From Ulvibacter litoralis (lineage in GTDB: Bacteria; Bacteroidota; Bacteroidia; Flavobacteriales; Flavobacteriaceae), in the NCBI RefSeq assembly GCF_900102055.1, contig NZ_FNBA01000001.1, positions 581,085 through 645,084 on the forward strand: a DNA stretch of 64,000 nucleotides. Direction: 5' to 3'. Position numbers and translations under genes: made by a program. Numbering within the stretch: the first letter of the stretch is position 1; the number at the start of each line of letters is the position of its first letter. This document shows, one piece after another, positions 3,536 to 41,930 of the stretch. The notes beneath the pieces were generated by a model. The model had not been told where the DNA came from. It did no database searches and saw only the letters and a program-made list of their open reading frames with translations.

Positions 3536-3873
3536 ATACCATAGAACAAATACTACATATCGCAAAGCTAAAAAACAATTGCCCTGTATGTTATGCTACA
3601 GATGGTTTAGAGATTTCGTTTATCCAAGAAGAACACGAAAATAAATATTACAACAAAATAAAAAAGGAAGTTTCAGAAACCCTGTATTGTCATAGTTGTA
3701 AAAATATTATTTATCCTGTAAACTGGAATGAAGATATTGAACGTGTGTATCAATATCATAAAAAACAAGCAAAACCAAAAAGTGCACAAATACAATTAAA
3801 ACCTATTACGTATTCAGTCGTAATTGGCATTCTACTCGTTCTTTTTGTGGTTTTTTATGTAGCTAGCCTATAG
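3532..3873 (+). CDS. small zinc-ribbon (2x CxxC) protein with a C-terminal TM anchor, translationally coupled to the upstream HK
   Basis: 113-aa ORF whose start overlaps the HK stop (ATGA). It has CPVC and CHSC pairs and a hydrophobic C-terminus (VVIGILLVLFVVFYV). Confidence 0.45.
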   Translation: MNTIEQILHIAKLKNNCPVCYATDGLEISFIQEEHENKYYNKIKKEVSETLYCHSCKNIIYPVNWNEDIERVYQYHKKQAKPKSAQIQLKPITYSVVIGILLVLFVVFYVASL

Positions 3874-7539: not shown

Positions 7540-7667
7540 TCGTAAATAATAATTACGAATAAAAGGGGCGTTATTCTTTGTTAAGGTTAAATAAATTGTT
7601 TGCTTCCGCAGATACGATATCATTGGTTCGCATGGTCTAAAAAAATATCTGAAAGACATTCTCTTAG

Positions 7668-7752
7668 ACTTGGTTTCCTAAACAGCATTACCTGTTCAAG
7701 GTTCTATGGGTATAATCTCAGCTTTTTACGGCACCCCTTTGAGATGCCGCAA
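7668..7752 (-). ncRNA. TPP (thiamine pyrophosphate) riboswitch
   Basis: The minus strand reads ...GGGGTGCCGTAAAAAGCTGAGATTATACCCATAGAACCTTGAACAGGTAATGCTGTTTAGGAAACC. This contains the conserved THI-element blocks GGGGTGCC, GCUGAGA, ACCC, GAACCUGA..GG.UAAUGC and AGGAA, in the correct order and spacing. It sits in the leader of the TonB-dependent receptor. Confidence 0.8.
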
Positions 7753-17005: not shown

Positions 17006-17088
17006 AATTATATGATAGATATTATGTACTTTTGCAGTCGAAAATTAAATTTTAACATTCCCGTTACTTGGGAATAAAGATACTAAAT

Positions 17089-18405
17089 ATGTCAACGAAC
17101 ACAGTACCCTACACCGCGTTTAAAGTAAAAGATATTTCCCTAGCAGATTGGGGACGTAAAGAAATTGAGCTAGCTGAAGCAGAAATGCCCGGACTAATGT
17201 CGCTACGCGAAGAGTATAAAGACGAACAACCTCTTAAAGGAGCTCGTATTGCTGGATGTTTACACATGACCATCCAAACAGCTGTTTTAATTGAAACTTT
17301 ACAAGCTTTAGGTGCAGAAGTTACTTGGAGTTCTTGTAATATATTTTCTACACAAGATCAAGCAGCAGCAGCAATTGCAGCTACCGGAACAGCAGTTTAC
17401 GCTTGGAAAGGATTAACAGAAGAAGAATTTGAATGGTGTATTGAACAAACACTTTTCTTTGGTGAAGATCGCAAACCACTAAACATGATTTTAGATGATG
17501 GTGGTGATTTAACAAATATGGTATTGGACAAATACCCAGAATTAGCAGCAGGTATCAACGGGATTTCGGAAGAAACTACAACAGGAGTTCACCGTTTATA
17601 CGAGCGTGTAAAAAATGGAACACTTCCAATGCCAGCTATCAATATTAACGATAGTGTTACTAAATCTAAATTCGACAACAAATACGGATGTCGTGAGAGT
17701 GCTGTAGATGCGATTCGTCGTGCTACAGACATCATGCTTGCTGGAAAACGTGTAGTTGTATGTGGATATGGTGATGTTGGTAAAGGAACTGCAGCTTCTT
17801 TTAAAGGTGCTGGTTCTATTGTAACCGTTACCGAAATTGATCCAATTTGTGCGCTTCAGGCGGCTATGGACGGTTTTGAAGTAAAACGTTTGGAAACCAT
17901 TCTTCCAACTGCAGACATCGTAATTACGACTACTGGAAATAAAGACATCGTTCGTGGAGAGCATTTTGAAGCAATGAAAGACAAAACTATTGTTTGTAAC
18001 ATTGGTCACTTCGATAATGAAATTGCAGTTGCTTGGTTAAACGACAACCACGGAAGTACGAAAGTAGAAATCAAACCTCAAGTTGATAAATACACCATCG
18101 ACGGAAAAGATATTATTTTATTAGCTGAAGGTAGATTGGTAAACCTTGGTTGTGCAACAGGACACCCAAGTTTCGTAATGAGCAACTCGTTTACAAACCA
18201 AACGTTAGCACAAATTGAACTTTGGAAAAACAAAGAAGCTTATGGAAACGAAGTGTATATGTTACCAAAACACTTAGACGAAAAAGTAGCACAATTGCAC
18301 TTAGCTAAAATTGGCGTTGAGCTTACAGAGCTTACCGAAGAACAAGCAGCCTATATTGGTGTAACTGTTGAAGGACCGTTCAAACCAGAATACTACAGAT
18401 ACTAG
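17089..18405 (+). CDS. ahcY: adenosylhomocysteinase
   Basis: Highly conserved SAHH sequence: the NAD-binding [14 protein letters not shown], and the C-terminal YRY. The probable start is ATG 17089 (MSTNT); the listed ORF begins at an upstream TTG. Confidence 0.95.
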
Positions 18406-18430
18406 ATCAATTCATTTATAGAAATTTGAA

Positions 18431-18470
18431 AATCCCAAGCAGTTATTGTTTGGGATTTTTTTATTTTGGG
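18431..18470 (+). terminator. rho-independent terminator of ahcY
   Basis: AAAATCCCAAGCAGTTATTGTTTGGGATTTTTTTATTTT. Confidence 0.75.
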
Positions 18471-18482
18471 CAATTACTACGT

Positions 18483-18570
18483 CGCGAAAAGCTACGCAGT
18501 ACCGCGCTTTACACTGTATCTTTTTCTCGTGCCTCTAAAAAGGATGCCGTTTCAATCGCTAGTGCAAACC
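18483..18570 (+). repeat. dispersed intergenic element, copy 1 of 3 (variable hairpin followed by a conserved GGATGCCGYTTC box)
   Basis: Shares AGTACCGCGCTTT, a CTRTATCTTTTT segment and AGGATGCCGTTTCAATCGCT with the copies at 28024..28108 and 41785..41872. Confidence 0.6.
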
Positions 18571-18574
18571 ACTT

Positions 18575-19117
18575 CTATTTTGCTTTTAAAAATACTTCTA
18601 TGTAATGTGTTGTTGTTAAATACTCATTTCTTAGATTAGAAACATATTTTTCTACTTCTTCAAAATTTTGATGTTCCTCATTAAGGCAGTCATTTAAATG
18701 ATCGTCTGTTACTGTCAGGGCAAGATACCACTTCCCGCTTCTAGTGACCTCTAAACTTTTTAAAACAGGAGCATGCCCTTTATCTTCAAGTGCTGCATCT
18801 ACGAGAACTGGAACAAGATTAACCGTTTTTGTTTCTTTATTAACTTCATAAAAAGTTAGATAACACGTTTGTCCATTAATAACCACAGGAATGTTTCCAT
18901 TAAAATCATCGTAGTTAAGTTGGTACTTGGCATTTATGTAATAATAAAACTCATTGGCTTCTTTAGGATCATCAAAAACATAGCTAAATTGATTGGGAAG
19001 GTTATTAACAAACTTCTTTGCTTTCACAATTTTCCCTTCCTCTAAATTGGGCGCAACCCGAAGCGGAATACAAGAGGTAGTAACCAATAAAAGAATGATA
19101 ATAAAACGAACTAACAT
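18575..19117 (-). CDS. hypothetical lipoprotein
   Basis: 180-aa ORF with signal peptide plus Cys (LLLVTTSCIPL). Confidence 0.4.
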   Translation of the reverse strand: MLVRFIIILLLVTTSCIPLRVAPNLEEGKIVKAKKFVNNLPNQFSYVFDDPKEANEFYYYINAKYQLNYDDFNGNIPVVINGQTCYLTFYEVNKETKTVNLVPVLVDAALEDKGHAPVLKSLEVTRSGKWYLALTVTDDHLNDCLNEEHQNFEEVEKYVSNLRNEYLTTTHYIEVFLKAK

Positions 19118-25681: not shown

Positions 25682-25713
25682 TTGATTTATTGATTTTAAA
25701 ATTCTTATATTTG
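25682..25713 (+). promoter_or_regulatory. Bacteroidota-type promoter (-33 TTG / -7 TAnnTTTG) for the HU-family gene
   Basis: TTG at 25682-25684 and TATATTTG at 25706-25713, 21 bp apart and about 50 nt upstream of the start codon. Confidence 0.35.
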
Positions 25714-25761
25714 CCCTCTTGAAAAAAAACCTATACTTATTAATAATAAAAAAAAATTAGA

Positions 25762-26052
25762 ATGACGAAAGCAGATATTGTAGCGAAAATTTCAGAAAAA
25801 TTAGGAATGGAAAAAGGAGATGTTCAAGCTACTGTTGAAACCTTCATGGAAGAAGTTAAAACTTCTTTAGAAAGTGGTGACAACGTATACCTTAGAGGTT
25901 TCGGAAGTTTTATTATCAAAACTAGAGCTGAAAAAACGGGAAGAAACATTTCAAAAAACACTACAATTAAAATCCCCGCTCATAACATCCCAGCTTTTAA
26001 ACCTGCAAAAGTATTTGTAGAGGGTGTTAAAACAAACGTTGAAGTAAAATAA
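25762..26052 (+). CDS. HU-family DNA-binding protein
   Basis: 96-aa ORF with the HU/IHF signature (GFGSF...RTGRN...I.I....FKP). Confidence 0.9.
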   Translation: MTKADIVAKISEKLGMEKGDVQATVETFMEEVKTSLESGDNVYLRGFGSFIIKTRAEKTGRNISKNTTIKIPAHNIPAFKPAKVFVEGVKTNVEVK

Positions 26053-27952: not shown

Positions 27953-27992
27953 AAAAGCCTTTTCAATTTAATTTGAAGAGGCTTTTTTTTTG
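27953..27992 (+). terminator. rho-independent terminator after rng
   Basis: AAAAGCCTTTTCAATTTAATTTGAAGAGGCTTTTTTTTT. Confidence 0.7.
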
Positions 27993-28023
27993 CACTTTAT
28001 TGGGCATTCCCTATTTCCGTTGC

Positions 28024-28108
28024 ACTTCAGTAGGTCGGGTCATCCACTATATCTTTTTTGTCCCCTTCTGCGACAAAAAAGGATGCCGCTTCTACCCCTA
28101 ATGCAAAT
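28024..28108 (+). repeat. dispersed intergenic element, copy 2 of 3
   Basis: CTATATCTTTTTTGTCCCCTTCTGCGACAAAAAAGGATGCCGCTTCTACCCC. The hairpin is TTTTTTGTC/GACAAAAAA, followed by the conserved GGATGCCGCTTC box. Confidence 0.6.
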
Positions 28109-28174
28109 CTTTATTAGATCTCGTTTTAGCATTCAATATGTATAATCAAACACAGAAAACAGTAACTTTGCTGT

Positions 28175-28651
28175 GTGGAAAAAAGTAAGTCTTATTCTGT
28201 TACTGAAGCTACCCAACGCTTAGAACGCTATTGTGCCTATCAGGAGCGTTGCCATAAAGAAGTACAGCAAAAACTTCGAGACATGCGAATGATTCCGGAG
28301 GCTATAGACCAAATAATTCACCACTTACTTCAGCATAATTTTTTAAACGAAACACGCTTCTCACAAGCCTTTGCCAGAGGTAAATTTAGAACTAAAAAAT
28401 GGGGCAAAAACAGAATCGTACGGGAACTAAAGCTTCGCGCTATTTCCAAATACAATATTACCATTGCCTTAAAAGAAATTGAACCTTCAGAATACCTTCA
28501 AACATTTGATTTACTTTCAGAAAAACGTGTAAATCAGTTGGCTTCCGAAGAAAACCTTCAGAAAAAACGAAAAAAACTCGCAGATTATTTACTCTACCGA
28601 GGTTGGGAAAGTGAGTTGGTTTATGAAAAGTTACGGGAACTCATTCCGTAG
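28175..28651 (+). CDS. recX: recombination regulator RecX
   Basis: 158-aa ORF made of three-helix repeat units (LRYCAYQERCHKEV, FLNETRFSQAFARGKF, YLLYRGWE), typical of RecX. Confidence 0.75.
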   Translation: MEKSKSYSVTEATQRLERYCAYQERCHKEVQQKLRDMRMIPEAIDQIIHHLLQHNFLNETRFSQAFARGKFRTKKWGKNRIVRELKLRAISKYNITIALKEIEPSEYLQTFDLLSEKRVNQLASEENLQKKRKKLADYLLYRGWESELVYEKLRELIP

Positions 28652-41724: not shown

Positions 41725-41784
41725 TTAAAATTGCAACGGATTTAATAAAAAATTGCAGGGTTTTTTTTAGAAGGGCTACTTCTT

Positions 41785-41872
41785 CGCCAAGCTTCGAAGT
41801 ACCGCGCTTTCAGCTATATCCTCGATACCTATCGAGGGATGCCGCTTCTATCGCTGCCCCAAACATTACAAA
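41785..41872 (+). repeat. dispersed intergenic element, copy 3 of 3
   Basis: AAGTACCGCGCTTTCAGCTATATCCTCGATACCTATCGAGGGATGCCGCTTCTATCGCTGCCCC. The hairpin is CCTCGATA/TATCGAGG, followed by the conserved GGATGCCGCTTC box. Confidence 0.6.
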
Positions 41873-41930
41873 CAAAAAAAATCGCCTATTAATAAGAATA
41901 GGCGATTTTTAATTATTTTATAAATATTGG

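Follow-up and report, generated by a model that had tools for sequence, protein, structure and literature searches.

Flavo-1 copies in the Ulvibacter litoralis window

Three look-alike stretches in the 64-kb window of Ulvibacter litoralis DNA analyzed here (the window being the whole stretch of 64,000 nt) are almost certainly copies of Flavo-1 (Rfam RF01705), and the best reading of this family is a host-tolerated or host-maintained, REP-like structured repeat. We give slightly less than an even chance to the proposition that Flavo-1 is a REP/BIME-like extragenic structural repeat and not a small-RNA gene, and the sRNA label that it carries in Rfam is at odds with its gene context and with published expression data. 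Flavo-1 was defined computationally in Flavobacteria/Bacteroidetes, with 239 representatives, covariation and stems of variable length (Weinberg et al. 2010, PMC2864571). Rfam types it as 'Gene; sRNA', and it is among the most abundant of the Rfam 'sRNA' families. No function has been assigned to it since 2010, and we found none in the literature searched. If the REP-like reading is true, each flavobacterial genome holds hundreds of 'sRNA genes' that have been given the wrong type, and the Bacteroidota own an unusually conserved class of structural repeat together with a protein partner; for the window itself this would be of little consequence.

Scanning the whole window against 4227 Rfam families placed all three copies on the minus strand. 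Copy 1 (18463..18568) scored 44.0 bits (E = 3.6e-6), copy 2 (27997..28107) 42.7 bits (E = 8.3e-6) and copy 3 (41764..41863) 41.0 bits (E = 2.4e-5). Copies 1 and 2 are thus above the RF01705 gathering score of 42 bits and copy 3 is short of it by 1 bit, although the copy 3 match is full-length (model positions 1-76). Read 5' to 3' on the minus strand, the Rfam core runs from 18567 to 18496 in copy 1, from 28106 to 28029 in copy 2 and from 41862 to 41796 in copy 3, and all helices are formed in the cmscan alignments of all three copies. Chance similarity is excluded by Rfam E-values of 1e-5 to 1e-6 for all three. No further Flavo-1-like Rfam match was seen in the window, even at E <= 10. A covariance model of the whole unit (R1), which was built partly from the window copies and scanned with filters off, gave them 69.6, 75.8 and 54.8 bits, respectively, and found no fourth copy in the window, where its runner-up match reached 11.5 bits.

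The host is a flavobacterium and falls within the taxonomic range of Flavo-1 (Flavobacteria/Bacteroidetes): at 28175-28651 the window encodes a RecX that matches the Ulvibacter litoralis protein at 100% identity. The window has a G+C content of 36.8% and contains no tRNA or tmRNA. Besides giving full-length matches to the covariance model, the window copies share with RF01705 the conserved nucleotides GAAGCGG...AGCGGAAAGC, a long hairpin that has 3x3 internal loops and ends in a variable tip, occurrence in Flavobacteria, and multi-copy intergenic placement. They differ from it in nothing essential; the P1, P3 and tail segments described below lie beyond the model. The family is already known, and routine Rfam annotation would label all three copies.

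The earlier note, made from the sequence alone, had proposed a conserved structured RNA or MITE-like repeat in three copies. The three stretches are present where it placed them, and a three-way alignment confirms the boxes that it described as shared: AGTACCGCGCTTT in copies 1 and 3, and CT(A/G)TATC(T/C)T in all three. Its longest box was slightly overdrawn, since GGATGCCG(C/T)TTC(T/A)A is found in all three copies while the terminal ..CGCT is limited to copies 1 and 3, copy 2 reading ..CCCCT. The conserved structured family that the note had suspected is Flavo-1, a known family that explains the finding under the criterion that the note had set for itself. The same alignment shows the window copies to be old and divergent from one another, not near-identical.

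Architecture of the Flavo-1 unit

A pattern scan of reference genomes for GAAGCGGCATCC, a gap of 10-40 nt and then GATAYAG returned at least 120 loci. Among the matches listed, nearly all came from Flavobacteriales, Sphingobacteriales, Chitinophagales and Bacteroidales, and about six were chance matches in other phyla. Parsing 113 copies in register revealed a unit that spans about 100 nt and folds into a Y. In the window it lies on the minus strand (the Rfam strand), and the Rfam model covers the 76 positions of its central arm only, leaving out the P1 stem, the P3 hairpin and a tail of CC plus A residues. On the Rfam strand the unit begins with the 5' strand of P1 (typically GCGTT) and one A, followed by the long arm P2. 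The 5' side of P2 consists of H1, H2, a GAA loop, the GC step H3, a GGC loop, H4 and a variable tip; its return side consists of H4', an AUA loop, GC, a GGA loop, H2', a G and H1'. A joint of 1-2 nt then leads to the P3 hairpin (0-58 nt), the 3' strand of P1 (typically AACGC), and CC with an A-rich run. The closing stem P1 is 4-5 bp long, P3 is optional and hypervariable, and the P2 tip is hypervariable as well. This extended three-way-junction architecture, with its covarying closing stem, is, like the case against the sRNA typing, a modest addition to a known family.

The conserved part of P2 is built around two purine-rich 3x3 internal loops, GAA opposite GGA and GGC opposite AUA. These flank an invariant GC/GC step, so that the AGCG/AGCG core (A·G, G-C, C-G, G·A) comes close to two-fold symmetry. 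The loops are purine-rich on one strand only, so the strand asymmetry is clear, and the core GAAGCGG...AGCGGA.AGC is conserved across Flavobacteriia, Sphingobacteriia, Chitinophagia and Bacteroidia. A second subfamily, mainly from the genus Flavobacterium, starts with YTAGCC and ends with GCTCC(T)AAAA. Its CUGAUG suggested a hammerhead ribozyme, a candidate that we rejected, since the CUG has CAG as its partner and the two covary (CCG/CGG, CGG/CCG). An integron attC site was also rejected, as the GTT...AAC order is reversed relative to attC and the neighbors are housekeeping genes.

The window copies belong to the first (GCGTT-type) subfamily and have variant closing stems. P1 is GCACT/ATTGC with one mismatch in copy 1 (18561-18565 with 18470-18474), a perfect 5-bp GCATT/AATGC in copy 2 (28100-28104 with 28004-28008), and GGGGC/GCCC(U) in copy 3 (41856-41860 with 41773-41776). 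The P3 hairpin occupies about 18475-18501 in copy 1, where the CC and A-run follow at 18463-18469; it is CCTA...TAGG in copy 2 and TACTTCG...CGAAGAAGTA in copy 3. Against this background, the hairpins noticed earlier from the sequence, which differ between copies at matched positions (CTTTTT/AAAAAG in copy 1, TTTTTTGTC/GACAAAAAA in copy 2 and CCTCGATA/TATCGAGG in copy 3), are real, but they represent only the hypervariable P2 tip of a larger Y-shaped fold. The extents then given to the stretches omitted 20-27 nt at the low-coordinate end, which hold the second hairpin and the closing stem. Likewise, the three copies do share one orientation, but it is the minus strand, not the plus strand, that Rfam reads as the strand of the family.

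Compensatory changes support every helix

The closing stem allowed an unbiased test of pairing, in which complementarity played no part in placing the stem and permutation of P1 5-mers among copies served as the control. The exact complement of a copy's own P1 5-mer was found downstream in 54 of the 113 copies (50 of 52 in the GCGTT-type subfamily), compared with 15.3 ± 3.0 complements, and a maximum of 27, after permutation. Thirteen different P1 5-mers each occurred with their own complement downstream. In an alignment of 46 sequences with 23 pairs, 89.4% of cells were paired, and 127 cells had changed on both sides. Column shuffles gave 75.6% (0 of 500 reached the observed value) and sliding the partners by 1-3 columns gave 37-54%; for P1 itself the figure from this alignment is biased, because its sequences were picked for having P1. 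Compensatory changes thus support every helix of the Flavo-1 unit, and the compensatory variation claimed in the earlier note is borne out on this larger set. By comparison, the folding stability of single copies was uninformative (z-scores of 0 to -2.2 on either strand).

Nearly all pairs in the helices are Watson-Crick. H1 and H2 together contained 533 Watson-Crick, 6 G·U and 7 A·C pairs, and the tips contained 894 Watson-Crick, 23 G·U and 8 A·C pairs. G·U makes up about 2% of pairs and is unusually rare, so both strands can fold. The wobble evidence that would name one functional strand is accordingly weak, and a G·U excess of 7:0 in H3 was discarded as an artefact, as the scan pattern had fixed one side of that step. 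Even so, the tip counts (G·U 23 versus A·C 8), taken with the purine loops on one strand, would fit a single functional strand, be it RNA or single-stranded DNA.

Gene context and terminators

Copy 1 lies between two convergent genes, ahcY (17068-18405, plus strand) and a gene for a 180-aa protein with no Pfam match (18575-19117, minus strand; the flanking genes were named from Pfam). It begins 6 nt past the stop codon of the latter and is in the sense direction, within its 3' UTR. Copy 2 sits between the terminator of an RNase E/G gene and recX, 68 nt ahead of recX and antisense to both of these plus-strand genes. Copy 3 follows the terminator of glmS and precedes the start codon of atpD by 120 nt; it reads in the same sense as both of these minus-strand genes. 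Each copy is therefore adjoined by an intrinsic terminator, which belongs to the context and not to the element: that of ahcY (18428..18460, plus strand) abuts copy 1, that of the RNase E/G gene (27953..27986, plus strand) ends 10 nt before copy 2, and a bidirectional terminator-like hairpin after glmS (41877..41910, minus strand) ends 13 nt before copy 3. The orientation of the element relative to transcription is inconsistent among the three. Elsewhere a terminator was adjacent in about 7-8 of 91 copies, so no general rule emerges.

The terminator beside every window copy, along with tips that form T-run/A-run hairpins, is what would be expected if the copies were ordinary intrinsic terminators or chance look-alikes. 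We consider the probability of this explanation to be virtually nil, given the E-values of all three copies, the separate canonical terminators beside them and the scarcity of such neighbors at other loci. Moreover, on both strands a T-run precedes the hairpin and an A-run follows it, so that a hairpin with a U-tail is not formed, and a terminator scan at the three window copies called only the neighboring hairpins and never the elements.

Across the larger set, flanking ORFs relative to the Rfam strand were co-oriented at 29 copies, anti-oriented at 34, convergent at 22 and divergent at 12, and 5 copies fell inside ORF calls. Orientation is not linked to the direction of transcription, and divergent (promoter) regions are under-represented. 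Orientation was also unbiased relative to local GC skew (48 versus 52), with 8-kb skew serving as a noisy proxy for replication. Positions -52 to -13 upstream of the full 113 copies had no position conserved above 60%, and hence no fixed promoter motif. The window copies had no sigma-70-like sites in a scan whose tool lacks a model for Bacteroidetes promoters (TTTG / TAnnTTTG). The 3' side of the element is CC and an A-run, not a U-run, and comparison of filled and empty copy 2 sites suggests that the A-run is, at least in part, a pre-existing T-rich flank.

Expression of Flavo-1 in Flavobacterium psychrophilum

A transcriptome study of F. psychrophilum counted 128 Flavo-1 copies in the genome and found matches that were sense or antisense to transcribed regions, with many untranscribed, and its authors did not accept them as bona fide RNA features (PMC9723704). 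We sampled the strand-specific arrays of that study at 13 features (0001, then every third feature from 0002 to 0035), for which background is about 3.9 and typical mRNAs reach 9-13. Signals on the Rfam strand were 4.0, 5.6, 8.3, 3.9, 3.9, 3.9, 5.1, 6.5, 4.5, 4.7, 6.6, 5.1 and 8.6, that is, no higher than 6.6 in 11 of the 13 copies; these data come from another genus, and probes on a structured, repeated target may under-report. The opposite strand was a well expressed operon spacer or 5' UTR in 7 of 13, with signals of 8.6-12.0.

These results bear on the Rfam typing, under which Flavo-1 would be a family of trans-acting sRNA genes transcribed independently from the minus strand. Such a family would account for the strong covariation, for purine internal loops on one strand that resemble RNA-protein sites, and for tips in which G·U pairs outnumber A·C pairs (23 versus 8). 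It would also suit the H3 step of copy 1 and its same-site relatives, which reads AC/GT, GT/GT and GC/GT and pairs only on the minus strand, with wobble allowed. However, no conserved promoter was seen at a constant spacing from the element and no terminator closing it, orientation is random with respect to neighboring genes, the wobble excess of H3 in the large set came from the scan pattern, and, in a genome that holds 128 copies, 11 of the 13 sampled gave little or no signal above background on the Rfam strand. We thus regard an sRNA gene family as very unlikely, and the 'functional RNA' half of the earlier proposal is weakened by the gene-orientation statistics and the published expression data.

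Another possibility is that Flavo-1 is an orientation-independent RNA hairpin that acts only when co-transcribed, in the manner of ERIC/IRU, BOX or Correia elements, and tunes the stability of flanking mRNAs as a barrier to 3' exonucleases or as a site for RNase III or RNase E-G. Near-pure Watson-Crick helices that let either strand fold agree with this, as do the position of copy 1 in the 3' UTR of the 180-aa gene, the 7 of 13 F. psychrophilum copies that lie in well expressed spacers or 5' UTRs in the sense opposite to Rfam, and pairing that is kept across species at the same sites. On the other hand, a simple barrier needs no strand-asymmetric loops conserved across a phylum, copies 2 and 3 lie just past intrinsic terminators and so outside the upstream transcription unit, and many F. 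psychrophilum copies are outside transcribed regions (PMC9723704). On balance we judge this explanation unlikely. As a class, ERIC/IRU, BOX and Correia/NEMIS elements resemble Flavo-1 in being modular, long imperfect hairpins of 100-150 bp found in intergenic regions or UTRs in both orientations. They differ in having terminal inverted repeats, TA duplications (Correia) and a restriction to genus or family, whereas Flavo-1 has no duplication and only a covarying 5-bp closing stem.

Same-site copies retain their pairing

Each window copy was found at the same site in relatives and was missing from others. Copy 1 is present in uncultured relatives (loci L125-127 and L131) whose neighboring 180-aa protein is 71% and 63% identical, between the stop codon of that gene and the shared terminator, with the core kept and the tip and P3 differing; relatives at 55% and 51% identity in that protein lack it. 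Copy 2 has counterparts in L132 (RecX 91% identical) and in U. antarcticus (L133, RecX 79%). Ulvibacter sp. MAR_2010_11 (L134, RecX 78%) lacks copy 2, and its spacer between the RNase E/G gene and recX measures only 75 bp. U. antarcticus also carries copy 3 ahead of atpD (L133, 17764-17903), and MAR_2010_11 lacks this copy too.

Stems at the same site differ in sequence and remain complementary. H1 is GCG/CGC in some same-site copies and GGG/CCC in others, P3 of copy 2 occurs as CCTA/TAGG, CCCTT/AAGGG and CCTCT/AGAGG, and P3 of copy 3 is TACTTCG/CGAAGAAGTA in one case and TTCTCTTTC/GAAAGAGAA in another. Because these stems differ yet stay complementary, individual copies appear to be kept under structural constraint and not to be decaying. 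The same-site retention of pairing could in part reflect gene conversion between copies.

Mobility signatures

Flavo-1 occurs at a density of about one copy per 20-40 kb (three in 64 kb in the window), which is close to the 128 copies counted in F. psychrophilum, and about 20 extra copies outside the scan pattern were present in roughly 0.9 Mb of loci. Occasionally copies are neighbors: L016 and L109 have head-to-head inverted pairs, and L075 has a cluster. Signatures of transposition were sought on several fronts. Flanking repeats of at least 5 nt were present at 13 of 93 copies, compared with 11.9 ± 3.0 for permuted flanks, so target-site duplications do not exceed chance, and a CTTTATT repeat around copy 2 is probably a chance occurrence. 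No long terminal inverted repeats and no parent IS were seen, the sole terminal complementarity being the covarying P1 of 4-5 bp. A RAYT-like HUH motif (HuH plus a Y-motif frame) was absent from the 131 loci and the window, about 1 Mb around the copies. The 5' ends read (T)TTGCGTTAGGG or YTAGCCC and bear neither a GTAG nor a CGTC tag. The analysis yielded no direct sign that Flavo-1 moves.

A MITE in the strict sense, as the earlier note had entertained, is thus not supported, given target-site duplications at the chance level and a terminal inverted repeat that is nothing other than the covarying 5-bp stem. A broader version would make Flavo-1 a purely selfish, non-autonomous mobile element, MITE-like or IS200/IS605-PATE-like, mobilized by some transposase and with no host function. 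Its multiple intergenic copies in random orientation, the presence and absence of copies at the same site in related species, the recurrence of tip modules with nested palindromes, and a compensatory difference between two paralogous copies (L023 and L052) are all in line with such an element. The count of flanking repeats (13 versus 11.9), the lack of long terminal inverted repeats, the lack of a transposase or HUH motif in about 1 Mb around copies, and window copies that are old and divergent rather than near-identical all speak against it. In addition, copies persist at the same site across genera with the core kept and the tips replaced, when neutral relics should decay. A purely selfish element is therefore, in our estimate, distinctly improbable.

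A possible REP-like structured repeat

The REP, BIME and REPIN repeats of Proteobacteria are the model for our preferred reading of Flavo-1 as a REP-like structured repeat. Like Flavo-1, they are extragenic imperfect palindromes with conserved asymmetric mismatches, number tens to hundreds of copies per genome, occur in both orientations and occasionally as inverted pairs, favor the 3' ends of genes, lack target-site duplications, and persist vertically with presence/absence differences between relatives. There are also clear differences. A REP is a hairpin of about 35 nt with a 5' GTAG or CGTC tag, whereas the Flavo-1 unit is Y-shaped and about 100 nt long; classical REPs differ between genera, whereas the core of Flavo-1 is conserved phylum-wide; REPs within a genome form a near-identical cloud, whereas Flavo-1 copies are divergent; and no RAYT transposase was found near Flavo-1 in the 131 loci and the window. 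What speaks most strongly against the analogy is a core conserved throughout the phylum, together with purine loops on one strand. Published REPs of the Bacteroidetes-specific RAYT subclass 2.6 are short hairpins with a GCTAG foot and are unlike Flavo-1.

Under the REP-like reading, Flavo-1 copies would arise rarely, by duplication without target-site duplication, and would settle in intergenic DNA, mostly at gene 3' ends and in either orientation, where they would then be retained long-term with base pairing preserved. The active species would be the folded hairpin, either extruded from DNA or formed within any transcript that crosses a copy, so that a dedicated promoter would probably be unnecessary for Flavo-1 function. 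The symmetric purine-loop core is probably recognized by a conserved host factor. A more specific and more doubtful version, which we offer tentatively, is that Flavo-1 is the Bacteroidota counterpart of REP/REPIN elements. It would act as folded single-stranded DNA or an extruded hairpin. Its AGCG/AGCG core would dock a putative conserved host protein, perhaps of the HUH type or a nucleoid protein, that is responsible for both spreading and keeping the copies, and the tips and P3 would be the places where nested mini-palindromes land or gene conversion acts.

Several observations concern the variable parts of the unit. Identical tip modules recur across loci and species, and small palindromes are nested inside copies. 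A 38-nt tip insert (CATGAAGTAGAGC..AGCTCACT..ATGACTACTA) is identical in both U. antarcticus copies and occurs nowhere else in the 20-kb locus. Because this insert is shared, gene conversion between copies or a nested mini-element is likely to shape them as well. Separately, the paralogous copies L023 and L052, which come from one genome, differ from each other by a compensatory pair.

Tip insert and other short repeats

Both Flavo-1 copies (Rfam RF01705 folded repeat) in locus L133 of U. antarcticus, which occupy the same positions as copies 2 and 3 of the window, carry an identical insert of ~38 nt (CATGAAGTAGAGC..AGCTCACT..ATGACTACTA) in the tip, the hypervariable end of the long arm P2 (L133 9368-9379 and 17854-17865). 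The insert was not found in the U. litoralis copies or at any other locus examined. This suggests either that dispersed copies exchange sequence by gene conversion or that a nested mini-palindrome is directed to the tip. Mini-hairpin motifs of the GCGAAGC and GCGCAGC types are likewise common in Flavo-1 tips, and the same intergenic regions in relatives contain further short GC-rich repeat motifs, for example GCCACGTCGTTCGTGCCTCACTTCTCGCAATGAC, GTCACTGAGCTTGTCGAAGTGAGC and AGCGCAGCG modules and repeats of GGGCCGGGGTGAGGGC (L128 ~1250-1300, L129 ~3580-3630, L125 ~2540-2600 and L133 9786-10000).

Flanks and arrangement of Flavo-1 copies

Flavo-1 copies can lie next to one another. Two independent head-to-head pairs were found among the reference-genome loci (L016 6836-7004 and L109 2002-2253), with 5' ends 27 nt apart in each, and at a third locus three copies are clustered within 800 bp (L075 1981-2760), two of which have 12 nt of upstream flank in common.

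In the YTAGCC subfamily, found mainly in the genus Flavobacterium, a semi-conserved motif, (T)TCT(T)TGAAAAC, lies 18-30 nt upstream of ~20 of the 48 copies among the matches listed from the reference genomes (L001-L120; for example L012, L041, L071, L093, L102 and L112). This motif was also found within long hairpins of P3, the optional third hairpin, and it is similar to the Flavo-1 element's own 3' end (GCTCCTGAAAA). The subfamily may have a longer 5' extent, or may insert beside sequence like its own end.

In the window, a perfect 7-bp direct repeat, CTTTATT, stands on either side of copy 2 (27995-28001 and 28109-28115) and has the appearance of a target-site duplication. Across the 93 copies tested, flanking direct repeats of this kind were no commoner than chance.

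Strand and gene neighbourhood

Plus-strand GC skew is clearly negative over the whole window (-0.089, 1-64000), and the Rfam strand, that of the RF01705 model, is the G-rich strand in all three window copies. In a large sample of Flavo-1 copies among the matches listed, Rfam strand and GC skew split 48 vs 52, with no such rule. A Flavo-1 copy near ahcY lies downstream of the gene in the window but upstream in F. psychrophilum, where flavo-1_0008 adjoins ahcY, between sfp and ahcY, and gives a signal equal to array background (PMC9723704, supplementary file 4).

Other RNA-family matches in the window

The Rfam scan of the window also returned a TPP riboswitch-like match on the minus strand (7657-7748), that covers the full model, with one helix mostly deleted, and scores 35.2 bits (E = 0.0036), below the gathering threshold of 54.3. 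An S15-Flavobacteria ribosomal leader was matched weakly on the plus strand (25706-25764; 31.6 bits vs 46.5, E = 3.2).
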